In this document: piece after piece, positions 32,784 through 63,797 of the stretch | Layout: each line of letters starts with the position of its first letter | Numbering within the stretch: the stretch's first letter is position 1 | Source: Eledone cirrhosa | Taxonomy: Eukaryota | Length of the DNA: 64,000 nt | Reading direction: 5' to 3' | Assembly: GCA_964016885.1 (NCBI GenBank) | Contig: CAXHJY010001472.1 | Coordinates: 1,036,176 to 1,100,175, forward strand | The notes under the pieces: model-generated | Told to the model about the DNA's origin: nothing | The model's input: the letters and a program-made list of their open reading frames with translations, nothing else | Databases searched by the model: none | Program-made: the position numbers and the translations under genes

Positions 32784-32784
<1 letters not shown>

Positions 32785-32917
32785 CGTTTGAATATGTGTA
32801 ATAAGGCCAAGACAATGCAGGTATGGACATAGAAAAAAGAATGCAATAGTGAAAGATATTGATGTGAATTCGTCTTTCACCTGCATTGTCTTGGCCTTAT
32901 TACACATATTCAAACGT
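32784..32917. repeat. Inverted repeat, 39-bp perfect arms, between (TA)n tracts
   Basis: acgtttgaatatgtgtaataaggccaagacaatgcaggt (32784-32822) is the reverse complement of 32879-32917. Confidence 0.9.
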
Positions 32918-32969
32918 TTATACCTCATTACCTCATTACACAATGCTTCAAGTGAACTATAACCTCCTC

Positions 32970-33007
<38 letters not shown>

Positions 33008-33428
33008 CAATGGCTGTAAGACTGGTGTCTACAGGATGGGTGGGGTTCAATGGTTTAAAGAAAAGGGAAATTCTTTAGAAGCTAATTCTTTAAGGCTGAA
33101 ATAAGGGTGACAAAGGCAGAAAGGGTTCCATCAACAGATTCAAATGTTGGGGTGAGCCCCCCCCCTATTGATATATATTCTTAATATATATTCCAGGTGT
33201 CGAGAAACACATTCACACTCGCCCACTTACACACGTACACACACACAACAAACATACTTAATGCTACATACACACATACATATATACAAATATATACACA
33301 TATATATACACATACATACAAATATGTGTACACACACATATATATATATACATATAACATATATAAATATGTATATATATACATATATACATATAACGTA
33401 TATATATATATACATATATATATATGTA

Positions 33429-33527
33429 GGAGGTTGGTGTTAGGAAGGGCATTCAACTGTAGAAATCAAGTTCCCGTCCCACCCTTTCAAGCAGGGAAAA
33501 GCGGACGTAAAATGATGATGATGATGA
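33429..33527 (+). mobile_element. Short RTE-LINE/SINE-type 3' end with (GAT)n tail
   Basis: ggttggtgttaggaagggcattcaactgtagaaa...gacgtaaaatgatgatgatg is shared with the 3' UTR of the RTE fragment at 39121-39950. Confidence 0.7.
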
Positions 33528-33529
33528 TA

Positions 33530-33530
33530 C

Positions 33531-33564
<34 letters not shown>

Positions 33565-34210
33565 TCTCATGCAAACACACGTATACACACATTCATATAT
33601 ATATATTTATATAGTAAAGCACTTTACTATTAGGATTATATATATCCATATATGTTGTTCTTGGCTGCTATTTCTAGCGCTAAAATTAAAACCTGAAGTG
33701 GACAAGATGAAAAAGTTAGCTAAAATTCAGTCTCAACTTTTTAAACAATAGATTTTTTTATGTCAACAAACGGAGAATATTTGGCAAGAAAGATAACTCT
33801 TGTCTTACTTAAAGCCGGAAATTGAGTTAAAAATTTTGCGGGTCTGCAGTTTATATAAACCTTCTTATTTGGTCTTGTTAACTGGCATTTGACTGCTATT
33901 TCTAGCATATATTAATAGACACTTTAGAAATAGCAGCCAAAAGTCAGCTAACAACACTATAGGAAACACCAGAAAGAAGGACTCATGCACACACACACAT
34001 ATATATATATATATGTACATGAGTGTGTGTGTATATATATATACATGTACACACACTCAGACATCTGTGTGTGCGTTTATATATATATATATACACAGAC
34101 ACGCACAAATATATTAATATATGTGAGTATATATATATAATATATGTATGTATGCATGTGTGTGTATATATGTGTATGTGTACGTATTCATACATACATA
34201 TATATGTGTA

Positions 34211-34241
<31 letters not shown>

Positions 34242-34252
34242 GCATATATATG

Positions 34253-34307
<55 letters not shown>

Positions 34308-34419
34308 GTGTGTGGGGGGAGGGGGTTGTATATAAATATTCACACACACATACACATAGATATACATATACTGTATATATATATACATATACATATATAT
34401 CATATACACACATATACTG

Positions 34420-34452
<33 letters not shown>

Positions 34453-34478
34453 ACATATATATATGTATATGTATATAC

Positions 34479-34517
<39 letters not shown>

Positions 34518-34645
34518 CATATATATGCATATATATATATATATATACACACATATATGTATGTATGAATACGTACACATACACATATATACACACATGC
34601 ATATATTATATATATATATACGCACATATATTAATATATTTGTGC

Positions 34646-34679
<34 letters not shown>

Positions 34680-34997
34680 ACACACACACAGATGTCTGTG
34701 TGTGTGTACATGTATATATATATACACACACACACACTTATGTACATATATATATATATGTGTGTGTGTGCATGAGTCCTTCTTTCTGGTGTTTCCTATA
34801 GTGTTGTTAGCTGACTTTTGGCTGCTATTTCTAAAGTGTCTATTAATATATGCTAGAAACAGCAGCCAAGGCAACATATATAGATATATATAATCCTAAT
34901 AGTAAAGTGCTTTACTATATAAATATATATATGTGAATGTGAGTATCTGTGTGTATGCATGAGAGTGTATGTGTGTGTGTATATATATATATATATA
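33530..34997. repeat. ~1.5-kb imperfect fold-back (inverted duplication) rich in (TA)n/(CA)n
   Basis: 33889-34300 pairs with 34480-34869 (e.g. ctataggaaacaccagaaagaaggactcatgcac vs gtgcatgagtccttctttctggtgtttcctatag). 33530-33678 pairs with 34851-34997. The left arm has a ~210-bp extra segment at 33679-33888. Confidence 0.85.
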
Positions 34998-35386
34998 TTG
35001 GTAAACGGAATAGAAAATGCTGACAAATTATTCACAGTTGAAAAATGGTTTAATTAGGAATAAAAGAGTATTAGTGATTGTATGGGTTAGTATTCAGTTG
35101 TGGTTTTAAGTTTTTAAGTTTTTACCGGTTGCGCATTCCTAAATGCTTTTCAAAAATAATTTTGAGATAGCGTGTCCGTGTTGTTTGCTCTGATCAACAC
35201 GGACACTCTATCTCAAAATTATTTTTGAAAAGCATTTAGAAATGCGCAACCGGTAAAAACTTAAAAACTTAAAACCACAACTGAATACTAACCCATACAA
35301 TCACTAATACTCTTTTATTCCTAATTAAACCATTTTTCAACTGTGAACAATTTGTCAGCATTTTCTATTCCGTTTACCAATATATA
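34992..35386. repeat. Near-perfect palindrome, 192-bp arms, 11-nt loop; each arm carries a degenerate hammerhead-like motif
   Basis: 34992-35183 is the reverse complement of 35195-35386 with few mismatches; loop tttgctctgat. Motif TTGAAAA-GCATT-TAGA-AATGC-GCAA-CCGG-TA at 35225-35255. Confidence 0.92.
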
Positions 35387-35701
35387 ATAACTTGTGTGTT
35401 ACACCTCTATTCTTTTAACTATATATATATATATATAATATATAAGATCAAAAGATGGTTAAAAGAGTTCCATGTATTTTATTATGTGCATTTCAAAAAC
35501 AAACATCATCATGCAATAATATTTGTGTTTTCATAAGATAAAATAGGAAGACATGATATGAAGGTTAAAAAACACTTGTGGATAGTGCAGTTTTAAATCA
35601 ACATATCTTATATATTATGTATACTCCAGTCCTACAAACTGTAGAGTGCTTCTTATCCGATATCTGCATTGCTTTATTGTACTACAATAAAACTCACCTC
35701 C

Positions 35702-35738
<37 letters not shown>

Positions 35739-35869
35739 GTGAGGTTTTTTTTACAAAATGAAAAATAACCGAGGTGTCCTACACGAGTGAAAGTATAAAG
35801 AAAAAAAGATGAAATCGAAAATGCAACTGGAGTCTTATTTAAAAAAATATATATATATTTATTTGGTTC

Positions 35870-35905
35870 CTTTACCGGTTTCGCAGTTCTTCTGCTTTTC
35901 AAAAG
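35870..35905 (-). ncRNA. Putative minimal hammerhead ribozyme, U3-A8 variant (left-arm copy in the 35803-36078 palindrome)
   Basis: Reverse complement reads ctt TTGAAAA GCAG aagaa CTGC GAAA CCGG TA aag; stem I ctt/aag is 3 bp. Confidence 0.5.
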
Positions 35906-35976
35906 TAGAGTTGAGATGGAGGGTCTGTGGTTTTTCTCTTGTGAGGAAAACCACAGAACCTCCATCTCAACTCTAA

Positions 35977-36011
35977 TTTTGAAAAGCAGAAGAACTGCGA
36001 AACCGGTAAAG
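35977..36011 (+). ncRNA. Putative minimal type-I hammerhead ribozyme, U3-A8 core variant (Penelope pLTR-like)
   Basis: TTGAAAA (U3 U4 G5 A6 N7 A8 A9), stem II GCAG/aagaa/CTGC, GAAA, palindromic CCGG, TA (GUA triplet). Stem I is only 2 bp; AATAAA follows downstream. Confidence 0.45.
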
Positions 36012-36073
36012 GAACCAAATAAATATATATATTTTTTTAAAAATAAGACTCCAGTTGCATTTTTGATTTCATC

Positions 36074-36120
<47 letters not shown>

Positions 36121-36122
<2 letters not shown>

Positions 36123-36228
36123 CATCATCATCATCCTTTTACGTCCGTTTTTCCCTGTTTGCAGGGGTAGGACAGGAACTGATTCTGGCTTGATTTCTAC
36201 AGCCGGATGCCCTTCCTAACACCAACCT
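36121..36228 (-). mobile_element. Short RTE/SINE-type 3' end with (GAT)n tail
   Basis: atcatcatcatc...tttctacagccggatgcccttcctaacaccaacc is the reverse complement of the shared 3' UTR motif. Confidence 0.7.
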
Positions 36229-36317
36229 CATACATATATATATATGTATATATATATATTATATGTATATTTGTATATATACATATGTTATATGTATATA
36301 TATATGTATATATATCC

Positions 36318-36625
36318 AAAATTAAAATTAAGGGTTGTCATGTCTGAGAGACATGCGCCATATCCACCGTAGAATAAGCTCAAAGATTAGATCCGAGCAT
36401 TACATATCAACTAGAAATAGATTGACATATATATATATATAATAAATACATGAAACAATCACAGAGTATAATTTGTAAAGAATGTAGGCACACATAGCTA
36501 GGTAGGTAACTAATTAAAGTTTAACTAGAACTTCAAATATAGATACCTTTTAAAATGATTAATCTCCTTTGTATATATTTCTTTAAGTAAGAAATATATT
36601 TCACCTATTAATCCGTAAATCACAG
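36318..36625 (+). pseudogene. Possible highly decayed Penelope-like element C-terminus (Zn-knuckle linker + GIY-YIG endonuclease)
   Basis: Manual translation gives IKGCHV*ETCAI (36327-) and ICKECRHT*LG (36471-36503; C..C...YxG-like), then IPFK and EIYF fragments. Many stops and indels. Confidence 0.3.
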
Positions 36626-36819
36626 CAGTTAAATTCTTGGATGTTCACCAAAGGAGAAGAAGATAACCATCTGCGTTTACACAGCAAATGCAAAACTGCG
36701 AATGATTTGGACCACGTGTTTTCCATGGGGATGACGTGGTTCAACGAGTGTATTTTTAAAAACGGAATGAGGGGTACACACACACACATATATATATATA
36801 TATATGTGTATATATATAT

Positions 36820-36859
<40 letters not shown>

Positions 36860-36864
<5 letters not shown>

Positions 36865-37023
36865 ATATTAATAAATGGAAACTATATTTATAAAACCATA
36901 TATATTTTATTATACATATTTCAAGGGCCACATTCTTTAGGATCTCTTCTTCTCTAAAAGACATTGTGGCCCTTGAAATATGTATAATAAAATAAATATA
37001 GTTTCCATTTATTAATATATTGT
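36860..37023. repeat. Imperfect palindrome (~65-80-bp arms) next to (TA)n
   Basis: acaatatattaataaatggaaactatattta...tttcaagggccaca vs tgtggcccttgaaa...taaatatagtttccatttattaatatattgt. Confidence 0.85.
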
Positions 37024-37110
37024 GTAGTTACACCACTAAGTGTTGAGTGCTTTATATCAGTTATAAAAATGTTTAAGCTTGTTGAATCCCAACAAATTAA
37101 ATATAACCTC

Positions 37111-37177
<67 letters not shown>

Positions 37178-37345
37178 TAAAATAACAGATTAAAGTTTAA
37201 GCAAAGAATCGCTGCTTTCACCCTTAAAGGGATCTTCTGAAAAAATTTTAATAAATATTTGCTCTACGGTTCTTATATATTTAATATATATTTATCCTTA
37301 TCGAGCTCTCTTTGGATTTTAGTCTTCAAATTTATTATTATTACT

Positions 37346-37600
37346 ATCATCATCATCGTTTAACGTCCATATTCCACGGTTGCATGGGTTTGGACGGGAG
37401 TTTTCCCACTTGAGGCAAGAGTGGTTGTCTTGCTCGCATAGGACTGTCTGGCGGGTTTTCTACGGCTGGATGCCCTTCCTAACACCAACCACATTTACAG
37501 TGTGGAACTGGGAGGTTTTTACTGTGTTACCTACACGGCCACATTACAGCGTGGACTGTGTGTTTATTTTGTCGTGACACCTACACGACCTCATTTGTAC
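37346..37600 (-). mobile_element. RTE-type 3' UTR fragment with (GAT)n tail
   Basis: atcatcatcatcgtttaacgtcc...ctacggctggatgcccttcctaacaccaaccacatttacagtgtgg matches the reverse complement of 39770-39950. Confidence 0.7.
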
Positions 37601-37719
37601 TATATATATATATATATATGATAATAATAATAATTGTTATAAAATAAAAAGGACGATTTGTTGTCTTAAGTGGTCCCCAACATTTTCTGCTTCAAATTAA
37701 CCCCTATTATATACAAATT

Positions 37720-37831
37720 GCAACGTATACCTTCCTGCCAGATGGTTGAACGTCCGAAAGTATATAATTTCCTTATGCATATTAACGGCTGAGTAGCCCA
37801 TTTTGCATATCGGCAGGAAGGTATACGTTGC
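37720..37831. repeat. 20-bp perfect inverted repeat overlapping the 5' strand of the hammerhead
   Basis: gcaacgtataccttcctgcc (37720-37739) / ggcaggaaggtatacgttgc (37812-37831). Confidence 0.85.
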
Positions 37832-37867
37832 TGATGATAGCTAACAAGCTTGAAACTAGTACAGCGT
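37825..37867 (+). ncRNA. Minimal type-I hammerhead ribozyme (Penelope-like element type)
   Basis: ACGTTG-CTGATGA-T AGCT aaca AGCT T-GAAA-CTAG-TA-CAGCGT. Canonical CUGAUGA and GAAA boxes, 6-bp stem I (one GU), 4-bp stem II, palindromic ACTAGT helix III, GUA cleavage triplet. Confidence 0.75.
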
Positions 37868-38254
37868 TCCTTTGTCACTGTTGAACAAACGAGCAACGAT
37901 GGTTGCTGGACACTACGGCTTAATTCGGGATGTTTGTTTACAAACACACCGAGCATTGTAATGAATGCTTGGTGAATCCATACGTACATATATATATGTG
38001 TGCATGTATGTATATATATATACATACTACTGTACGTCTGTATACATATATGTATGTACGTATACATACTTATATTTAAGTAACAACCGTACTAAGGGTG
38101 GGAAATGAAATTTCGTTTCATTTTTTTCGTTTATATATATATATATATATATATGTGAAGTAATTCCGTCGGAAAAGTCCAGGAAAAAAGAGTGCTCTAT
38201 GTAGGTAACAGAGCTTAATAGTTATGTAATAAACAACATAAGGCAATTATTTCA

Positions 38255-39120
38255 TTTACCAGTGGTTTCTTAAAAGCAAACAAATTTTAGAGAGTGAGGT
38301 ACCACAGACATCACAGTGATATGGTTCCTCTCCTGTATATGTTAGTGTGTAGTGAAGCAACAAAATTTAGAGAGTGAGGTACCACAGACATCATAGTAAT
38401 ATGGTTCCTCTCCTGTATATGTTAGTGTGTAGTGAAGCCACAGAATTTAGAGAGTGAGGTACCACAGACATCACAGTGATATGGTTCCTCTCCTGTATAT
38501 GTTAGTGTGTAGTGAAGTCACAACATTTAGAGAGTGAGGTACCACAGTCATCACAGTGATATGGTTCCTCACCTGTATATGTTAGTGTGTAGTAAAGTCA
38601 CAGAATTTAGAGAGTGAGGTACCACAGACATCACAGTGATATGGTTCCTCTCCTGTATATGTTAGTGTGTAGTGAAGTCACAACATTTAGAGAGTGAGGT
38701 ACCACAGTCATCACAGTGATATGGTTCCTCACCTGTATATGTTAGTGTGTAGTGAAGCCACAAAATTTAGAGAGTGAGGTACCACAGACATCACAGTGAT
38801 ATGGTTCCTCTCCTGTATATGTTAGTATGTAGTGAAGCCACAACATTTAGAGAGTGAGGTACCACAGACATCACAGTGATATAGTTCCTCTCCTGTATAT
38901 GTTAGTGTGTAGTAAAGTCACAGAATTTAGAGAAGCATTTACCACAGACATCATAGTGATATAGTTCCTCTCCTGTATATGTTAGTGTGTAGTAAAGTCA
39001 CAGAATTTAGAGAAGCATTTACCACAGACATCATAGTGATATAGTTCCTCTCCTGTATATGTTAGTGTGTAGTTAATGTAACATTCAAAGAGAATGGTTT
39101 CTCTCACATGTCACAATGAG
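38255..39120 (-). pseudogene. C2H2 zinc-finger-derived 80-bp minisatellite (~10 copies) / ZNF pseudogene
   Basis: Exact 80-bp period (agagtgaggt at 38291, 38371, 38451 ... 38851). The minus strand of each unit translates YTGEEPYHCDVCGTSLSK..FTTH*, a ZF unit lacking 4 bp. Degenerate fingers flank it (HCDM*EKPFS..LTTH). Confidence 0.85.
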
Positions 39121-39950: not shown

Positions 39951-40729
39951 ATATAGTGTATATAATAGTTGTAATGTCACTGGTGCTGATCTATATCAGC
40001 CTTTCCCTTGGACAACATGACATATAGTCTATATATATTGGACAATATTATATATAGTGTATATGTGGTGTATATAGTAGTTGTGACAATATTCTATATA
40101 CATATGTACACACACACTGACAAACATGTATATACATATAGAAGGGTCAGATGAGGAGTTCATAGGCTGACCAAGTTACTCTCATGGAATGAGACAATGT
40201 ATACACACAAATATATACTATATATATGTATACAAACACATATATATTTTATAGTGAAGTCATACAACATATGGTAATATCATGTTTTCTATTGTCAGTT
40301 AGGGAGGTACATTGTGACCTTAAGCAAGACACATCATTCCACATGTCTCTAATCTCCACAGCTGAAAAAGACAAGTATCAGCTTTAGTTGGAGGTTTAGC
40401 ATGGGTTGTATCATTCTCTGCCTCCAACATTTTCCCTGCAGCCACAAACCCAGGCTTTACTACCTGCAATAGAGAGAAGAGGGAGATAGTTAAATACCGG
40501 GGCCTGACTCACCACTTCCTATTTGTCCCCACACTGCTGATTTCCTTCTCAAAATTAGAAGCACAGCAGCCCCCTTGAGGAAGTAGTCTCATGAGGTGGG
40601 GTGTATGTTGTAGTGGGTGACTCTGGCTATTCTCTGTAGTAACACCTTTGTCATTTTGTCTGTAGGGTGGGGCTGAATCACAGCTCAGACTGAAATATAA
40701 AGTCTGTCCCTCTCCCGTTAATTTCGTTG

Positions 40730-40910
40730 GATTGGCAGTGTCGGTAGAGCGTCGGACGCCAAGCTTTGTAGCATAGAGTTACCTCCCTTTATGATCTGAG
40801 TTCAAATCCCGCCGAGGTTAACTTTGCCTTTCATCCTTACGAGGTCGATAAAATAAAGTACCAGTAATACACTGGAATAATTGCTGGCCTTGTGCCAAAA
40901 GTAGAAACAA
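40730..40910 (+). mobile_element. tRNA-derived SINE
   Basis: A-box-like TGGCAGTGTCGGTAG and B-box GAGTTCAAATCC. ~12-bp TSD ttaatttcgttg/ttattttcgttg. Empty site in the paralog at ~54335. Confidence 0.85.
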
Positions 40911-41438
40911 TTATTTTCGTTGTTTGATTCGTTTTTTTTTTTTCATTACTTAAATATTTTATTACCTTTAATAATGTGTTTTGGTTTAATATGAACAGTT
41001 ATATAAAATTAATAACGTTATTTATTCAAATCTGAATAAAGTACTAGCATATCTATTGAACGTATGAATCTAAACTATAATAAAAGAAGGAGCGCGGGAC
41101 TGCGTACAGTTTCTAATTGTTTATCCCATTAGTAAAATAAGTTGCATTACTTTGAATAAATAATGAATGACTATTACATAATTTATCTACTAAATTTCGG
41201 GGCTGTTGATTAAATATATTTTGTTTGTTTAAAAATTCACTTCTTTAAAATTTCTGAAATGCCAACACTTCCGGTTGGCCATCACTTCAATAAACTATTA
41301 ATTTTCTGTCACTAATTTTCTCCTAATGCAGTTTATATATAATATCGTCCTTTTTAATGTATCATGGATTACGTTACTGATTACATAAGACAGTGTAACA
41401 CAGTCTTTGTTCAATTTCTGTGTATTATATATTGTCAA

Positions 41439-41623
41439 GGCGGTGGATTGGCAGTATTGGTAGAGGGTCGGACGCCATGCTTTGACGCATAGAGTTACGG
41501 CCCTTGCCATTCTGAGTTCAAATCCCGCCGAAGTTAACTTTGCCTTTCATCCTTACGGGGTCGATAAAATAAAGTACCAGTAATACACTGTTATTTGCTT
41601 GCCTTGTGCCTAACGTAGAAACA
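41439..41623 (+). mobile_element. tRNA-derived SINE
   Basis: GGCGGTGGATTGGCAG head and B-box GAGTTCAAATCC. Perfect 15-bp TSD attatatattgtcaa at 41424-41438 and 41624-41638. Confidence 0.9.
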
Positions 41624-41653
41624 ATTATATATTGTCAATTATGATTTTATTTG

Positions 41654-41860
41654 ATGTATCATATCTACATGTATATATATATACTTGCGTATAATATCAA
41701 TATACACACTACACATGCTATCAGAAAACCACCCAAAGGTAGCATGTGTAGTGTGTATATTGATATTATACGCAGGTATATATATACATGTATCATATAT
41801 ACTTGCGTATAATATCAATATACATACTACACATGCTACCTTCGGGTGGTTTTCTGGTAG
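41654..41860. repeat. Three-armed fold-back (X-Y-X'-c-X-Y')
   Basis: The 43-bp arm tatacttgcgtataatatcaatatacacactacacatgcta occurs as +, -, +. The spacer cagaaaaccacccaaagg reappears inverted after the third arm. Confidence 0.85.
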
Positions 41861-42831
41861 TTCATATAACGGAAGTTGTTTCTGAATGTATTAAATTATG
41901 TGGGGGACTTTTAAGTGATGACACCGGTGTCAACTAGACGGTGAAATATTACTATTTATATTAGCTCCATTGTTACAACTTAAACCTCATCTAATTTTAT
42001 CTTTTATGGTGATTATTTCATATTAAGGTGGACGTTAATGTTTGTAAATAACATAAGGTGACTTATTTACATTATAGTTGTTGTTTTATCACCTGTATTA
42101 TTAAATATTGAAGGGGTTGTTCAACATTTTACAGGACAGGAAAATATTATTTTAATCAGAAATCAGTGAACATTTAGTTTTTACTAACTTTTCTTGACTT
42201 TATATTTGGTCTTGACAACTAAAGTACGTATTATTTCGTTTTCCACCACAACACAAACAGTGTGAACTTTTCTATCTGAAGTGAAATATCTTGATTTATT
42301 ACAACACCTACACACATATTTCTACACACACGTCTATTTATTTATTTCTCTCTCATACCTACACACTGTATGTCTGTATATATATATATATATATATATT
42401 AACCTTCATCTTTTGAAATTCTGGATATTAATCCTCTTGTCACCTGAACTGTCCCCAATAACAAGAACCTTAACTATAGAAGTCTTATTCGTCTGTTTTA
42501 TGAGCTGAGTATTTTATTGTGAATAGAGCTTCTCTCACCTTAACAATAATAATAGTGATATATTCCACAATAATCACACACACACACACATATATATATA
42601 TAAGCACTTGCCTTTTCTTCATCCAAGATCAGTCTTACACTGACATATGTCTTATTACTTTACCAATTAAATGCTACATTACAACTTGTAGAAGAAGAAA
42701 GCAGACTTCTGCAGTCTTTTATGGACCCTTTGTATATTAGAATACATGGCATCTATTAACGATATCTACATTTCTTAATGTATCAATAAAAGTAGTGAGA
42801 ATCCTTTATGTAAATATCACTAGCTAGAAAT

Positions 42832-43929
<1,098 letters not shown>

Positions 43930-44025
43930 ACCCCATCACTGTGAAATGTGAAACACACATATACAGACACACTCTGGAAGGAAGAATATAAAATGTGAAG
44001 CTTGAAAAATCCTTATCTTATACTT

Positions 44026-44468
44026 ATTATCACCGTTTTACGTCATGAGACCTCGTCTTGCTCGTACGGGAACTGATTTTGGCTTGATTTCTACAGCTTG
44101 ATGTCCTTCTTAACACAAAACCTCATTTACTGTGTGTGCTAGGTGCCTTTTTTACCATGGTGCCTACACAGCCACTTTAATCTGGGGGCTGGGGGCTTTT
44201 TTGTTGACCACTTTGCAGTGGGTGGGGATGGGGACATATTTGTCTATATGCTTCAGCTTCGGCTTGTAGCCGTGTGAAGTCAGGTCTTCTGTATTACTGC
44301 ATGATGCCAGAGGGCACCGTCCTGCGTCATCACTTTTGAGAGGTGCAATTGGGCAAGGTCAGCTTTTATCACCTCATCCCGGGTCTTCCTGGATCTCCCC
44401 ACTCCAAGGCTTCCAGCGACATTTAGTGCTCTGCACCTTTTAATGCAGCTGTCATCCTTCATATGCAT
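44026..44468 (-). mobile_element. RTE LINE 3' fragment
   Basis: ORF MHMKDDSCIKRCR...GRSRKTRDEVIKADL is homologous to the RTE C-terminus at 39400, followed by the shared 3' UTR. Confidence 0.8.
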
Positions 44469-47799: not shown

Positions 47800-48022
47800 T
47801 AGTTAAATAATGGGGCCTGACTAACCAGTTCCCCTTTGTCCCCACACTGCTGATTTCCTTCTCAAAATTAGAAAGACAACAGCCCATTTGTGGAAGGATG
47901 TTGCAGTTGGGGTCTCTGGATGCTCTCTGTGGTAACACCTTTGCCATTTTGTCTGTAGGGTGGGGCTGAATCACAGCTCAGACTGAAATATAAAGTCTGT
48001 CATTTTCCCATTATTTCCGTTG

Positions 48023-48203
48023 GATTGGCAGTGTCGGTAGAGCGTCGGACGCCATGATTTGTAGCAGAGAGTTACCTCCCTTTATGATCTGAGTTCAAAT
48101 CCCGCCAGGGTTAACTTTGCCTTTCATCCTTGCGAGGTCAATAAAATAAAGTACCAGTAATGCACTGGGATAATTGCTGGCCTTGTGCCTAACACAGAAA
48201 CAA
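48023..48203 (+). mobile_element. tRNA-derived SINE (paralog of 40730)
   Basis: Same sequence, position and TSD as the unit A copy. Confidence 0.85.
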
Positions 48204-48715
48204 TTATTTTCGTTGTTTGATTCGTTTTTTTTTCCATGACTTAAATATTTTATTACCTTTAATAATGTGTTTTGGTTTAATATGAACAGTTATATAACAT
48301 TAATAACGTTATTTATTTAAATCTGAATAAAGTACTAGCATATCTATTGAACGTATGAATCTAAACTATAATAAAAGGAGGAGCGTGGGACTGAGTACGG
48401 TTTATAATTGTTTATCCCATTAGTAAAATAAGTTGGATTACTTTGAATAAATAATGAATGAATATTACATAATTTATCTACTAAATTTCGTGGCTGTTAA
48501 TTAAATATATTTTGTTTGTTTAAAAATTCAATTCTTTAAAATTTCTGTAATGTCAGCACTTCCGGTTGGCCATTACTTCAATAAACTATTAATTTTCTCC
48601 TAATGCAGTTTATATATAATATCGTCTTTTTTAATGTATCATGGATTACGTTACTGATTACATAAGACAGTGTAACACAGTCTTCGTTCAATTTCTGTGT
48701 ATTATATATTGTCAA

Positions 48716-48900
48716 GGCGGTGGATTGGCAGTATTGGTAGAGGGTCGGACGCCATGCTTTGACGCATAGAGTTACGGCCCTTGCCATTCTGAGTTCAAAT
48801 CCCGCCGAGGTTAACTTATCCTTTCATCCTTACGGGGTCGATAAAATAACGTACCATTAATACACTGTTATTTGCTGGCCTTGTGCCTAACGTAGAAACA
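48716..48900 (+). mobile_element. tRNA-derived SINE (paralog of 41439)
   Basis: Same head and B-box; TSD attatatattgt(c/a)aa. Confidence 0.88.
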
Positions 48901-48930
48901 ATTATATATTGTAAATTATGATTATATTTG

Positions 48931-49141
48931 ATGTATCATATCTACATGTATATATATATATACTTGTGTATAATATCAATATACACACTACACATGCTAG
49001 CAGAAAACCACCCGAAGGTAGCATGTGTAGTGTGTATATTGATATTACACGCAGGTATATATATATATATGTATCATATATACCTGCGTATAATATCAAT
49101 ATACATACTACACATGCTACCTTCGGGTGGTTTTCTGCTAG
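48931..49141. repeat. Three-armed fold-back (paralog of 41654-41860)
   Basis: Same X-Y-X'-c-X-Y' arrangement. Confidence 0.85.
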
Positions 49142-49655
49142 TTCATATAACGGAAGTTGTTTCTAAATGTATTAAATCATGTGGGGGACTTTTAAGTGAT
49201 GACACCGGTATCAACTGGACGGTGAAATATTACTATTTATATCAGCTCCATTGTTACAACTTAAACATCATCTAATTTTATCTTTTATGGTGATTATTTC
49301 ATATTAAGGTGGACGTTAATGTTTGTAAATAACATAAGGTGACTTATTTACCTTATAGTTGTTGTTTTATCACCTGTATTATTAAATATTGAAGGGGTTG
49401 TTCAACATTTTACAGGACAGGAAAATATTATTTTAATCAGAAATCAGTGAACATTTAGTTTTTACTAACTTTTCTTGACTTTATATTTGGTCTTGACAAC
49501 TAAAGTACGTATTATTTCATTTTCCACCACAACACAATCATTGTGAACTTTTCTATCTGAGGTGAAATATCTTGATTTATTACAACACCTACACACATAT
49601 TTCTACACACACACACACACATCTATTTCTCTCTCTCATACCTACACACTGTATG

Positions 49656-49696
<41 letters not shown>

Positions 49697-50099
49697 TAAC
49701 CTTCATCTTTTGAAATTATTGATATTAATCCTCTTGTCACCTGAACTGTCCTCAATAACAAGAACCTTAACTATAGAAGTCTTATTCGTCTGTTTTATGA
49801 GCTGAGGATTTTATTGTGAATAGAGCTTCTCTCACCTTAACAATAATAATAGTGGAATATTCCACAATAATCAGACACATATATATAAGCACTTGCCTTT
49901 TCTTCATCCAAGATCAGTCTTACACTGACATATGTCTTATTACTTTACCAACTAAATGCTACATTACAACTTTGTAGAAGAAGAAAGCGGACTTATGCAG
50001 TCTTTTATGGATCCTTTGCATATTAGAATACATGGCATCTATTAACGATACCTACATTTCTTAATATATAAGTAAAAGTAGTGAGAATCCTTTATGTAA

Positions 50100-51790
<1,691 letters not shown>

Positions 51791-51889
51791 ACCCCATCAC
51801 TGTGAAATGTGAAACACACAACTATACAGACACACTCTGGAAGGAAGAATATACAATGTGAAGCTTGAAAAATCCTTATCTTATACTTC

Positions 51890-52401
51890 TCATCATCATC
51901 ATCATCACCGTTTTACGTCCATTCTTCCATGCTAGCATAAGGTAGACGGGTTATCCTGTTGTGGGCAATGCCAGGTCCAGTTACCTTGTCTTGCTCATAT
52001 CGGAACTGATTTTGGTTTGATTTCTACAGCTTGATGTCCTTCCTAACACAAAACCTCATTTACTGTGAGGGCTAGGTGCTTTTTTTACAATGGTGCCTAC
52101 ACAGTCACTTTACAATGTGGGCTGGGTGATATTTTGTCAACCACTTTGCAGTGGGTGGGGATGGGGACATATTTGTCTATATGCTTCAGCTTCGGCTTGT
52201 AGCCGTGTGAAGTCAGGTCTTCTGTATTACTGCATGATGCCAGAGGGCACCGTCTTGTGTCATCACTTTTGAGAGGTGCAATTGGGCAAGGTCAGCTTTT
52301 ATCACCTCATCCCGCGCCTTCCTGGATCTCCCCACTCCATGGCTTCCAGCGACATTTAGTGCTCTGCACCTTTTAATGCAGCTGTCATCCTTCATATGCA
52401 T
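51890..52401 (-). mobile_element. RTE LINE 3' fragment (paralog of 44026)
   Basis: ORF 52213-52401 and a catcatcatc tail. Confidence 0.8.
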
Positions 52402-59490: not shown

Positions 59491-59755
59491 GTTAACCTCA
59501 GATCTAAGAACCTTGTATACCTCTCATCGGACAAGGGAAAATAGTTTTGTGTTATTACCAGAGAGGCCTACAACAACCGAGCCCACCAACATCTCAACTA
59601 TGACAGTCTCTACTCGGACGTCACTGGAATTACACCCACACTGATAGAGAACCAGATCAACACTGCCTGGACCAACATCTCGAAGGCTCCCGAAGAGATT
59701 CTGGTAGAATTACATAACAAGAAACACCAGACTGCCCAACTTCTGCCATCTGATC
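59491..59755 (+). mobile_element. Penelope-like element reverse transcriptase fragment (decayed)
   Basis: Manual translation: VNLRSKNLVYLSSDKGK*FCVITREAYNNRAHQHLNYDSLY...IENQINTAW and, after a frameshift, ITRNTRLPNFCHLI. These match the PLE N-terminal DKG motif and the PxFYxLxKxHK motif. Confidence 0.72.
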
Positions 59756-60217
59756 ATTTTACAGGACAGGAAAATGTTTTTTTAATCAGAAATCAGTGAA
59801 TAATTAGTTTTTACTAAATTTTCTTGACTTTATTTGACAACTAAAGTACGTATTATTTCATTTTCCATCACAACACAAACATTGTGAACTTTTCTAGTAT
59901 CTGAAGTGAAATATCTTGACTTATTACAACACGTACACACATATTTCTATACACACGTCTATTTCTCTCTCTCATACGTACACACTGTATGTCTGTATAT
60001 ATATATATGTGTATATATATTAACCTTCATCTTTTGAAATTATGGATATTAATTTTCTTCTGACCTGAACTGTCCTCAATAACAAGAACCTTAACTATAG
60101 AAGTTTTATTCATCTGTTTTATGAGCTGAGGATGTTATTGTGAATAGAGCTTCTCTCACCTAAGCAAATAAAATAGTGGTATACTCCACAATAATCACTT
60201 ATATATATATATAAAGC

Positions 60218-60398
60218 ACCCAGCACTCACTGTAAATGAGGTTGGTGCTAGGAAGGGCATCCAGCTGTAGAAATCAAGCCAGAATCAGTTCCCGTATGAG
60301 CAAGACAAGGTCAGCTGACCAGACACTGCCCACGACAGGACAACACATCTAACCCATGCTAGCGTGGAAGAACGGACCTAAAACAGTGATGATGATGA
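60218..60398 (+). mobile_element. RTE/SINE-type 3' end inserted into the (TA)n of unit D only
   Basis: ggttggtgctaggaagggcatccagctgtagaaatc...gatgatgatg, flanked by duplicated tatatatataa(a)gcac. Absent at 42600 and 49885. Confidence 0.75.
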
Positions 60399-60645
60399 TA
60401 TATATATATATATAAGCACTTGCTTTTTCTTCATCCAAGATCAGTCTTACGCTGTCATATGTCTTATTACTTGTACCAACTAAATGCTACATTACAACTT
60501 TGTAGAAGAAGAAAGCGGAGTTCTGCAGTCTTTTATGGACCCTGTGTATATTAGACTACATGGCATCTATTAACCATATCTACATATCTTAATGTATCAG
60601 TAGAAGTGGTGAGAATCCTTTATGTAAAGATCTCTAGCTAGAAAT

Positions 60646-60891
60646 ATGTCTGAATATAGCTGTGAGATTTGTAGGAAAACTTTCTCTTCAAAACTGAAAC
60701 TATCCTCACACGAGAAAATACACAGTAGAGAAAAACCCTTCCACTGTGAAATATGTGAGAAATCTTTCACTTATAATTCTAATCTTGTCATCCACATACG
60801 GAGTCACACTGAAGAAAAACCCTTCCATTGTGAAATATGTGAGAAATCCTTCCCATGGATTACTTCGCTGGTTGTTCACAAATGTAGTTAA
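60646..60891 (+). pseudogene. Short C2H2 zinc-finger gene (3 units; third truncated by CAA>TAA before its last His)
   Basis: 81-aa ORF with the same first finger and terminus as genes A and B; linkers degenerate (SREKP, TEEKP). Confidence 0.75.
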
Positions 60892-60988
60892 CACTAGTGA
60901 TAAACCCCATCACTGTGAAATGTGAAACACACAAATATACAGACACACTCTGGAAAGAAGAAAATAAATATACATATGTGTGTCTGTC

Positions 60989-61040: not shown

Positions 61041-61634
61041 TTGTCCTTAAATGCTTGCAGTTTATGCAACAAGATACATCTGTTTAACTCCTACGTCAGA
61101 AGCATCGACCCTGACTTCATCACAGTCACTGAAACATGGGCACATTCCTTACTCTGTGATGGGGTTTTCAGCATTACTGGGTACAACCTTTTCTGCAAGG
61201 ACCGCATTAATCGCCGTGGTGGTGGTGTGATGGTCTACGTTCGTTCAATCTTTTTGGTAATTCCTTGCGTTGATTTGAACGAATTACAAGAAGAAGTTTT
61301 TTTTTGTGACCTACGTATGACCATGTCAATACTTCTGCTTGGTATTGTTTATCGCCCCCCAAACTACCATCAGGACACACAGCTTTGCGATATCCTCAGA
61401 GTTGCTGCCAAGAAAACAGCCACTTATGTGTTTATTGCAGGTGACTTCAATCATCGTGAGATCGATTGGAAAACCTTTCGTTGGCCACAAAGTGCAAACG
61501 ATATCCTTGAACTAGTGCTGGACTCAAACTGGTCACAAGTAGTCACCTCTCCAATAAGAGGTGACAACACTTTGGACCTGATCTTCAACACTCTCCTGAA
61601 GTGGTTATCAGTTGTTCTACTGAGGAACCTCTAG
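61041..61634 (+). CDS. LINE APE endonuclease domain (frameshifted at ~61590)
   Basis: ORF track 197 aa with APE motifs. The true continuation PEVV...EPLGESDH lies in another frame. Confidence 0.8.
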   Translation: MSLNACSLCNKIHLFNSYVRSIDPDFITVTETWAHSLLCDGVFSITGYNLFCKDRINRRGGGVMVYVRSIFLVIPCVDLNELQEEVFFCDLRMTMSILLLGIVYRPPNYHQDTQLCDILRVAAKKTATYVFIAGDFNHREIDWKTFRWPQSANDILELVLDSNWSQVVTSPIRGDNTLDLIFNTLLKWLSVVLLRNL

Positions 61635-61658
61635 GCGAATCTGATCATGCTATGATCA

Positions 61659-63797
61659 TTGCCAATCTGGCACTTGAGGGCAGCAAACCAGAGCCATCTC
61701 CAATCTGCTTGCTTTGATTGGAATAAAGCAGATTGGAACTTGTACTGCACTGAGCTACAGCGCCCAAACTGGCATGAGATGTATAACTCTGGAGATGTGA
61801 ACACTATACTCCAGAGCATCCTGGACTCAATATGGATAGCATGTGCAGCATCGGTGCCACGTAAGCAGAAAAAAACCACCCCAAAAGTGCAATTTGGGAA
61901 ACTTCAGCAGTCCGACTTGCCAGGAAAGAATGTTGGGATGCTGAACGGGAATATAAACTGCATAAATCAGATGCCAACAGAAAAAAAGCAGAATAAATCT
62001 TCTAACCATCTCAAGCAAGGGACAAAGAAGGCAGTGCTTGAATTTGAACAGTGCATAGCAACCATTCCTGACAGTAAGGTGTTCTGGAAATATGTTCATT
62101 CAAAGCAGCGACCTCACTCCCCAGTTGGTCCTCTTCACAATCCCCACACAAGCCAGATCACTGACGATCCCAAAGAATGCGCAGAACTCATTGCTGAGTG
62201 CTATGCAAGGATTTTTACTGTTGAAAACCAGAACGTACCATCTCCACCATCTCTAACATCAAATTCCATAACAACTATGGAATTTACACCTGCAATGTTG
62301 CGACGTCACCTTAAGAATAAGTGCAACTCTGCCTCCCCTGGTCTTGATGGTGTTACATACCTGCTTCTCAAACGTGGCGGGTATTTCCTTTTGCGCCAGC
62401 TTTCTTTCTTCTTTCAATACTGTCTCAAAAATGGTGCTACTCCGGAGCAGTGGAAAACTGCCAGTGTCATTCCCCTGTTCAAAAAGGGCAACCGCATGTC
62501 ACCTGTCAACTATCGTCCAGTCAGTCTTACTAGCTGTATGGCCAAACTGATGGAATCCTGTGTCAGAGAAACACTTTGGAACTTCTGGAGCTCTCACAGC
62601 CTCATCCGGCCCTCACAGTTTGGATTTATCCCTAACTCCAGCTGCTGTGATCAGCTTATCGAGTTCCTTGAAGACATTACCCGGATCACTGACAGCGGCT
62701 CATGGGTGGATGTTGTTTACCTTGACTTCACTAAGGCTTTTAATTCTGTGCCACATAAAAGACTTATGGCAAAACTCTCTGCAATGGGTGTGAGGGATGA
62801 TCTTTTCAACTGGTTGAAATCCTTCATTCTCAGCCGAAAAGAGGTAGTCACGGTTCTAGGACAGCATTCTTCACCATATGAGATGTCATCTGGTGTACCA
62901 CAGGGATCTGTTCTTGGTCCCCTTTTGTTTGTGGCATATATTAATGACATATATGCCAACTTAAAGAATGCCACGGTACTGAAATATGCAGATGACATCA
63001 AGCTGTACCTTGAAATCAAAAGGACTGATCCTGAAATCTACAACTCTTTCCTACAATCAGACCTGGACACAATGCAGCAATGGATCACAGACTGGCAACT
63101 GAAGCTGGCTGTGGACAAGTGTACCACCATGCATTTTGGGAGGAAAAATCCAGCGTCCACATACTCCCTCCACAACACTGATATCAAAAAGTCCTCTTGT
63201 GAACGTGACCTGGGCATTACTGTCAGCAACGATGTGCGTTGGACAAAGCATGTCTCTAAGATTGTCAAGAAGGCCGAGGGTGTCTTGGCATCACTCAGCA
63301 AGACCTTTGTTAGCCGCTCTCCAGCCATCTATTTAAAACTGTATACAGCTATGGTACGACCACACTTGGAATTCGCATCATCAGTCTGGAATCCCTATCT
63401 TGCTCAGAACATTGACCTCCTGGAAACTGTTCAGAGACGTGCAACCAAGCGCATACCCTCCATCAGACACCTACCATACTCTGAACGCCTTGCTTCCCTG
63501 GGCATGGATCCATTGAAGCTCCGACGTCTGGCAATGGACTTGGTGAATACCCACAAAGTTTTTAACCATCTCGCCAATTGCAACCCTGAGCGCCTCTTTG
63601 ATCTCCAGGTGTCTAACACACGTGGACATGCCTACAAGATCAGAAAACAGCACAGCTCCCATGACTTTCGTAGACATTTTTTCACGCTCAGAGTTGCTGA
63701 AGCATGGAACAAACTGCCTGCGTCAATTGTTAGCTGCCGAGACACTGCATCCTTTAAGACACTCATGCTTCCCGAAATACGCCAAAACTACACTTGA
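61659..63797 (+). CDS. LINE reverse transcriptase (712-aa open frame)
   Basis: RT subdomain motifs are present, including YADD; KAFD appears as KAFN. Confidence 0.88.
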   Translation: MPIWHLRAANQSHLQSACFDWNKADWNLYCTELQRPNWHEMYNSGDVNTILQSILDSIWIACAASVPRKQKKTTPKVQFGKLQQSDLPGKNVGMLNGNINCINQMPTEKKQNKSSNHLKQGTKKAVLEFEQCIATIPDSKVFWKYVHSKQRPHSPVGPLHNPHTSQITDDPKECAELIAECYARIFTVENQNVPSPPSLTSNSITTMEFTPAMLRRHLKNKCNSASPGLDGVTYLLLKRGGYFLLRQLSFFFQYCLKNGATPEQWKTASVIPLFKKGNRMSPVNYRPVSLTSCMAKLMESCVRETLWNFWSSHSLIRPSQFGFIPNSSCCDQLIEFLEDITRITDSGSWVDVVYLDFTKAFNSVPHKRLMAKLSAMGVRDDLFNWLKSFILSRKEVVTVLGQHSSPYEMSSGVPQGSVLGPLLFVAYINDIYANLKNATVLKYADDIKLYLEIKRTDPEIYNSFLQSDLDTMQQWITDWQLKLAVDKCTTMHFGRKNPASTYSLHNTDIKKSSCERDLGITVSNDVRWTKHVSKIVKKAEGVLASLSKTFVSRSPAIYLKLYTAMVRPHLEFASSVWNPYLAQNIDLLETVQRRATKRIPSIRHLPYSERLASLGMDPLKLRRLAMDLVNTHKVFNHLANCNPERLFDLQVSNTRGHAYKIRKQHSSHDFRRHFFTLRVAEAWNKLPASIVSCRDTASFKTLMLPEIRQNYT

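Follow-up and report, generated by a model that had tools for sequence, protein, structure and literature searches.

What brings six hairpin-forming inverted repeats together within about 5 kb of TA-rich DNA? The window analysed here, a 64-kb stretch of the 3.0-Gb genome of Eledone cirrhosa (positions 1036176-1100175 of contig CAXHJY010001472.1), contains such a field of fold-backs, P1 to P6. An initial annotation, made from the sequence of this window, regarded them as candidate members of one system of Penelope-like elements (PLEs) in which hairpin RNAs carry self-cleaving ribozymes. Our analysis points, with high probability, to a different composition of the field: five of the fold-backs are head-to-head, 5′-shortened ends of five Penelope-type families lying in TA repeats, and the sixth, P2, is likely a local inverted duplication. 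The elements were probably inserted successively into (TA)n and then copied together with the surrounding duplicated segment.

The fold-backs and their parent elements

All six inverted repeats are present: P1 (32784-32822/32879-32917), P2 (about 33528-34311/34437-34998, with a TA-rich centre), P3 (34992-35183/35195-35386, 98% arm identity), P4 (35794-35938/35943-36087, 93% arm identity), P5 (36857-36938/36957-37026) and P6 (37720-37743/37809-37831). The initial annotation saw most of them abutting (TA)n with one arm running further than the other, and this holds for all six, the tails measuring about 39-90 nt. It also took the repeats to be unrelated, which is not true of P3 and P4: the two are 73% identical over 143 nt surrounding the ribozyme, and pieces of the P3 parent open reading frame (ORF) are 55-59% identical to the P4 parent protein.

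A minimal-hammerhead descriptor identified five motifs in the 64 kb, all inside three palindromes and all pointing outward, as the initial annotation had described. P3 carries two of them (35123..35153 on the minus and 35225..35255 on the plus strand), both of the U3-A8 variant with GCAA replacing GAAA in the core. The two in P4 (35873..35902, minus; 35979..36008, plus) are also of the U3-A8 variant and have a palindromic stem III, and the single motif of P6 (37831..37861, plus) combines a canonical C3-G8 core with a palindromic stem III. The same descriptor gave no match in 400 kb of shuffled DNA (two shuffles). In an Rfam scan of the window, 150 of the 182 matches were listed; none of these was a hammerhead, and all were sub-threshold and of microRNA type.

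Three of the families trace to protein-coding parents. P4 (35733..36077) consists of head-to-head pseudo-long terminal repeat (pLTR) ends of a family with a 775-aa protein comprising reverse transcriptase (RT) and GIY-YIG endonuclease; its tailed arm (35733-35938) lies on the minus and its tail-less arm (35943-36077) on the plus strand. P4 ends adjoin intact ORFs of 775-791 aa at 10/10 fetched loci (GIY-YIG E 9e-6, RVT_1 E 1e-6), and a query with the RT of this parent gave 13,394 candidates genome-wide, relatives counted in. In full elements the P4 sequence stops about 30 nt before the first ATG, and the pLTR partial tandem, in which the 3′ end is repeated ahead of the ORF, occurs at three loci (L229, L236, L237). 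P3 (34998..35419), tail-less on the minus strand and tailed on the plus strand (tail 35381-35419), likewise consists of head-to-head pLTR ends. They stand downstream of a broken RT plus GIY-YIG ORF in three loci; many copies of this family are 96-99% alike, and 58 of 59 hammerhead motifs share the change from GAAA to GCAA. Translations of both the P3 and the P4 parents contain a CX4CxxC linker ahead of GIY-YIG, which falls within the CX2-5CxxC spacing of Neptune and Nematis, and by this linker motif alone we assign them putatively to the Neptune/Nematis type.

P1 (32784..32971) joins the 3′ ends of an autonomous PLE family head to head, with a tail-less arm on the minus strand (32784-32883) and a tailed arm on the plus strand (32879-32971). 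Such ends bound an intact 903-aa ORF (RVT_1 E 2e-15; GIY-YIG E 0.007, under the Pfam cut-off), a pLTR partial tandem occurs at L159, and the cysteine spacing in the linker differs from that of the P3 and P4 parents. Elsewhere the family includes a 5-kb head-to-head palindrome and 344-bp tandem derivatives, with some arms as short as 9 bp and others exceeding 2 kb. The window copy lacks a complete ribozyme, and its centre has lost about 80 bp relative to the paralogue L117 through a deletion between ACCT repeats. In the P1 parent (L158, L159), position 4 is occupied by C in 24 of its 25 hammerhead-like motifs, and for this variant we found no description in the literature passages compared. A broken RT remnant on the plus strand at 59494..59755, 48% and 60% identical to the RT of the P1-family protein (tblastn, E 2e-16), bears out the PLE protein remnant that had been announced at 59491; it is unlinked to the fold-back field.

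These parents also bear on another class of mobile DNA. Miniature inverted-repeat transposable elements (MITEs) or Foldback DNA transposons with terminal inverted repeats are, like the fold-backs, short, non-coding, inverted, TA-flanked and high in copy number. The arms of P1, P3 and P4, however, continue into RT plus GIY-YIG ORFs, many arms occur singly, centres are variable and the two ends are unequal by a tail. The copies do not form a constant element bounded on either side by matching terminal inverted repeats; for P1, P3 and P4 such an origin is refuted, and for the field as a whole we consider it extremely improbable.

P5 (36861..37113) joins the ends of a further hammerhead-bearing PLE-type family head to head, with a plus-arm tail of about 90 nt. 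In the window it retains the 3′ half of the ribozyme only, around an unrelated 18-25-nt centre; copies elsewhere have a complete hammerhead with canonical core. The centre (36939-36956) is foreign to the P5 pLTR, yet it is found again at other P5 junctions (L146, L152), and this short sequence may be a templated insert. P6 (37720..38135) comprises, on the plus strand at 37809-38135, one incomplete copy of a tandem hammerhead unit of 428 bp, in front of which stands an inverted, 5′-truncated piece (37720-37808). Units of its family occur at 428-bp spacing in L091 and L092, where they are non-coding and have one type I hammerhead each. First-look candidates genome-wide numbered 1,056 for P1, 84 for P3, 1,420 for P4, 345 for P5 and 2,786 for P6; each search scored only 40 candidates, and the figures do not represent copy numbers.

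A possible second PLE protein remnant, suspected at 36318, was rejected. It gave no tblastn match to two PLE proteins and is part of a non-coding 536-bp tandem repeat unit (36316..36760, tentatively placed on the minus strand), whose longest stop-free frame is 69 aa. This unit has head-to-head copies at other places, and no hammerhead core was found in it at 36316-36760.

Pair geometry, insertion and the fate of the ribozymes

How the two arms came to be joined can be approached through the copies elsewhere, which include single arms, tandem arrangements and head-to-head pairs and whose centres differ from one copy to another. After 108 of 292 loci had been removed as paralogues of the field (a few that escaped this filter were skipped by hand), we scored the partnered loci together with two longer pairs and the window; 44 pairs entered and 42 were resolved, P5 pairs not being part of the set. 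One tailed and one tail-less arm were observed in 42/42 pairs. In 37 of them the arms are nearer each other than to other copies, with 95 non-majority bases in common, and the outer ends of the fold-backs carry TA. Moreover, the 5′ ends of short copies cluster, at -142 to -150 for P4 and at -190 to -210 for P3, and the cluster, to which the bystander copies L292 and L231 belong as well, surrounds a position that a TATA-like box precedes by 32-33 nt. Searches with the extreme ends of P4 and P3 gave no matches and are uninformative, as very common words are skipped.

For these pairs we lean towards a mechanism of insertion on two strands from two start sites. The enzyme would cut both strands of a TA-rich target, and reverse transcription would begin at two internal RNA sites, corresponding to the tail-less and the tailed ends; in the P4 family both would lie in the 5′ leader, just ahead of ORF1. 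The two copies would run toward the 5′ end of the RNA, often as far as the probable start site some 30 nt below the TATA-like box, and would then be joined 5′-to-5′ across a few shared bases, with later deletions shortening the centres. The hammerhead would probably not be required for insertion. Joining one product from each start site would explain both the one-tail rule and the outward TA ends, and copying to the 5′ end of the RNA, if it takes place, would explain the clustering of centres.

Alternatively, the same elements could be joined in another way, with a single copy folding back and priming the second arm on itself or using an antisense template, as has been suggested for rotifer PLEs. 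This route would suit the private variants common to both arms and the few-base overlap at the junctions; the tailed arm is the longer one in 6 of 8 unequal P3 pairs, and self-priming has been proposed before (PMC3846280; published work is cited here and below for the passages compared). However, a fold-back on a single DNA strand cannot add a tail that is missing from the first strand, and among the 30 unequal pairs there are 16 (10/12 for P1) whose tail-less arm extends further in the 5′ direction, a count that is weakened by later deletions, such as that seen in the P1 copy of the window relative to L117, and by alignment noise of 1-2 nt. We therefore regard fold-back priming as possible but unlikely.

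Several observations weigh against Penelope ends joined by two-strand, two-start-site insertion. In five of the 42 pairs, four of them P4, the arms are no nearer each other than other copies are, and three loci outside the 42 (the tandem array L110, L146 and L235) have no simple one-tail pattern. The P1 parent is without TATA directly after its tailed end, so that pairing with TA at the priming site is not general, and a target-site duplication is nowhere readable inside (TA)n. The 5′-end clusters are partly biased, since the P3 and P4 queries favour copies that reach the 5′ edge of the query, and both the start site and the TATA-like box are predicted from sequence alone. Furthermore, no intact ORF was found for the P3 family in the fetched loci, and for P5 and P6 the fetched loci contain no linked ORF of a coding parent, no further search having been made.

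The initial annotation went beyond insertion and suggested that a single non-autonomous family may produce hairpin transcripts with self-cleaving ends; in a fuller form of this proposal, cleavage would take place at both ends and the elements would be mobilised as palindromes. Five outward hammerhead motifs within 5 kb suit this idea, as do the non-coding P6 units, which are tandem elsewhere, and the tandem derivatives of P1. Five of the fold-backs, however, belong to as many families, three of which (P1, P3 and P4) trace to RT plus endonuclease elements with P6 alone being tandem and non-coding, and the core change in the P3 motifs also speaks against it. Only two of nine hammerheads lie inside fold-backs in a blind sample of the genome, which comprised forty 10-kb stretches, or 390 kb after removal of the satellite locus L283 (70/140 hits). 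A transcript across a head-to-head pair, from either strand, would begin with the antisense arm and contain the ribozyme a single time, at its downstream end. In the full palindrome, predicted pairing of stem II drops from 0.95 to 0.00 for P4 and from 0.14 to 0.00 for P3; in P6 the predicted values for the full palindrome fall from about 0.99 to 0.00 for stem I and from about 0.96 to 0.5 for stem II. The dimer partner required by minimal motifs sits on the opposite strand in head-to-head pairs, and minimal hammerheads have been found inactive in vitro as monomers (PMC4209133). Stand-alone folds of three motifs are no stabler than shuffles (z 0.0 to -1.1), which is expected for minimal motifs and was not used as evidence. 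Because the centres vary among dispersed copies, mobilisation of one family as palindromes is largely refuted, and we judge the proposal as a whole to be highly improbable.

In any hairpin RNA, the hammerheads would likely be zipped shut and not active. Here they are passengers of the pLTR, each probably copied with it owing to a position 80-160 nt from the end. What stands of the initial annotation is its view of head-to-head PLE insertions that accumulate in (TA)n and inherit their hammerheads from the pLTR, with P2 as the exception.

The field in its genomic context

Is the field special within this genome? The blind 390 kb contain 70 fold-backs, of which 41 are gap-free. Counted by one script, the field has eight (three of them parts of P2), compared with 0-5 in each of 78 blind 5-kb windows. 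The TA count was restricted to the 34 longest gap-free fold-backs, seven of the 41 with 21-33 matched bases per arm being left out. TA lies within 90 nt on one side of 27 of these 34, as against 27% of control intervals, and on both sides of 14 of them, as against 7%. The 34 fold-backs cover 2.8% of the 390 kb and extrapolate to about 260,000 sites genome-wide. The P1, P3, P4, P5 and P6 families are all represented in the sample; not all of its fold-backs are PLE-derived, and a few have ends resembling short interspersed elements (SINEs). Within this genome-wide pattern the field represents the dense extreme, high in density yet not unique. The locus removed from the sample (L283, G000:C7:30000001-30010000) is a satellite with a unit of about 277 bp and a palindrome of about 135 bp in each unit. 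Further TA-flanked repeat ends lie in the window at 37177-37330 (E7; 14 matches in the blind sample), 38156-38275 (U2) and 35445-35704 (E8); they make fold-backs at other loci.

About ten further places, distributed over C18, C28 and three small contigs, contain most of the field as well; some of them may be haplotype copies. The paralogues differ by the presence or absence of single elements. Perfect palindromes can form in library preparation, which counts in favour of a library or assembly artefact. So does the P1 junction, which was found in 0/18 paralogous regions; in addition, no contig from other samples spans the whole stretch 34996-36080, for which matching reads and contigs contain the families and TA-joined ends, these particular junctions not being isolated. 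Nevertheless, junction 40-mers (<=3 substitutions) recur in 9 (P3), 12 (P4), 10 (P5) and 8 (P6) of the 18 paralogous regions, which include two overlapping pairs, and the two arms are 2-7% divergent and unequal by a tail specific to the family. Chimeric fold-backs, which the initial annotation had listed as a possible objection, can on this evidence be set aside as scarcely probable. The field is ordinary Penelope debris within a duplicated, repeat-rich segment.

P2 (33528..34998) probably has a different origin. It is best read as a decayed inverted duplication of local DNA, which forms a palindrome of about 1.8 kb (90-92%) in five paralogues. The small fold-back E8 stands at the exact centre in L198 and L207 and is absent from the window copy, in which the right arm is also short by about 200 bp; in L170 and L171, E8 has P2 sequence on one side only. 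Judging from these arrangements, P2 likely arose by inverted duplication in place and is not a PLE-type end. Fold-back inverted duplications can be seeded by short inverted repeats. The exact-centre hairpin of two paralogues, the ancestral flank on one side and the centre deleted in other copies resemble them, and P2 is unlike them in that its arms measure only 0.8 kb and end in a TA tract and in that its presumed seed is the TA-flanked E8. The simplest sequence of events, which we favour by a modest margin of confidence, would start with a break or stalled fork that used the small E8 hairpin to fold back on itself; copying would then proceed through about 0.8 kb of flanking sequence as far as the TA tract, and the central hairpin would be deleted afterwards. 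A retrotransposed 3′ transduction is a somewhat doubtful alternative, ranked lower because one side retains ancestral flank. A genome search with E8 gave no matches and is uninformative for the same reason as those with the P3 and P4 ends. The arms of P2 contain an older dispersed repeat with short direct repeats (33640-33985 in the window; L205, L212, L213), whose CCGGAAG motifs resemble sequence upstream of zinc-finger genes.

The surroundings of the field are likewise repetitive. Positions 1-32551 of the window are a satellite with a unit of 25-28 bp, at least 32.5 kb long and with marked strand skew, and its edge at ~32566 interrupts a hammerhead-bearing repeat end whose ribozyme is intact in L117. 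The fold-back field follows, and after it come arrays of 80 and 85 bp, SINE copies and C2H2 zinc-finger genes. The zinc-finger gene units (40725-44150, 48018-52140 and 59750-60950) are tandem duplicates with frameshifts in their arrays. Upstream of two of the copies, and duplicated together with them, are nested fold-backs (41660-41860 and 48935-49141) in which a 70-bp unit occurs three times in alternating orientation. A long interspersed element (LINE) with endonuclease and a 713-aa RT frame, which we take from its translation to be of CR1/L2 type, occupies 61041-63797.

Relation to known systems

The separate traits of these pairs have counterparts in published work. PLEs are known to have an inverted 5′-truncated copy, a one-sided tail and a (TA)n bias (PMC8557442), and to form head-to-head palindromes (PMC3846280). 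In work with a purified PLE protein, both strands of AT-rich DNA were cut and extended, synthesis began at two RNA-internal sites that set the limits of the tail, and the ribozyme was dispensable (PMC11167929). Together with the private variants common to both arms and the 5′ ends gathered at the probable start site, the one-tail rule gives genome-scale support for two-strand, two-start-site insertion, a part of the Penelope cycle that the cited papers call unresolved in the passages compared. Intact young Penelope parents exist in this genome for testing the insertion step.

The abundance of such hairpins may also matter for RNA editing. In Octopus vulgaris, 31 Penelope-like families have been recently active (PMC13282606). 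Octopus showed the highest double-stranded RNA potential in a comparison made without repeat annotation, and a lizard Penelope is heavily edited (PMC5625713). We tentatively raise the possibility that head-to-head Penelope ends are a dominant source of near-perfect hairpin DNA here, and that they may underlie the octopus double-stranded RNA load and A-to-I hyper-editing and seed inverted duplications in zinc-finger clusters. Most of the extrapolated ~260,000 fold-back sites would then carry the TA-plus-tail signature. P2 suggests that Penelope palindromes may seed larger inverted duplications in zinc-finger gene clusters, and the genome-wide palindrome load allows a direct test of a role in hyper-editing. 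In a literature search of incomplete coverage, we found neither a link between PLE palindromes and cephalopod editing nor a one-tail count.

Among known elements, the parents most resemble endonuclease-positive (EN+) PLEs of the Neptune/Nematis type (PMC8557442; PMC3846280), with RT followed by a C-terminal GIY-YIG and, in the P3 and P4 parents, the CX4CxxC linker. They share with EN+ PLEs the pLTR partial tandems, the inverted 5′-truncated head-to-head copy, the tail at one end, the (TA)n targets and TATA- and initiator-like motifs in the pLTR. A hammerhead in the pLTR, as in EN+ PLEs, is found for P3, P4 and P6 in the window, in other copies of P5, and as the C4 variant in the P1 parent. In contrast, the tails measure 39-90 nt instead of 30-40, the P4 parent has an upstream frame ahead of its 775-aa frame, and short palindromes lacking an ORF are very numerous.

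The ribozymes themselves compare best with the minimal hammerheads of Schistosoma Cercyon and other PLEs, for which U3-A8 cores and opposite-strand pairs 100-700 bp apart have been reported (PMC4209133). The U3-A8 core, the palindromic stem III, the extra base after position 9 (in P6) and the opposite-strand pairs of motifs are common to both; the GCAA core of P3, the C4 of the P1 parent and a stem II of only 4-5 bp are differences. Retrozymes have been described as PLE derivatives (PMC7229834; bioRxiv 10.64898/2026.07.22.740005), and P6 resembles animal non-LTR retrozymes in its 428-bp non-coding tandem unit, within their 150-450 bp range, and in its type I hammerhead per unit. It departs from them in that this hammerhead is minimal and not canonical, in its PLE-style inverted 5′ piece and TA ends, and in the partial monomer present in the window; on sequence grounds, P6 can be described as a retrozyme-like hammerhead unit. 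Overall, the geometry, the tail, the (TA)n targets and the U3-A8 hammerheads are all published features of Penelope elements, and the field is not one new system.

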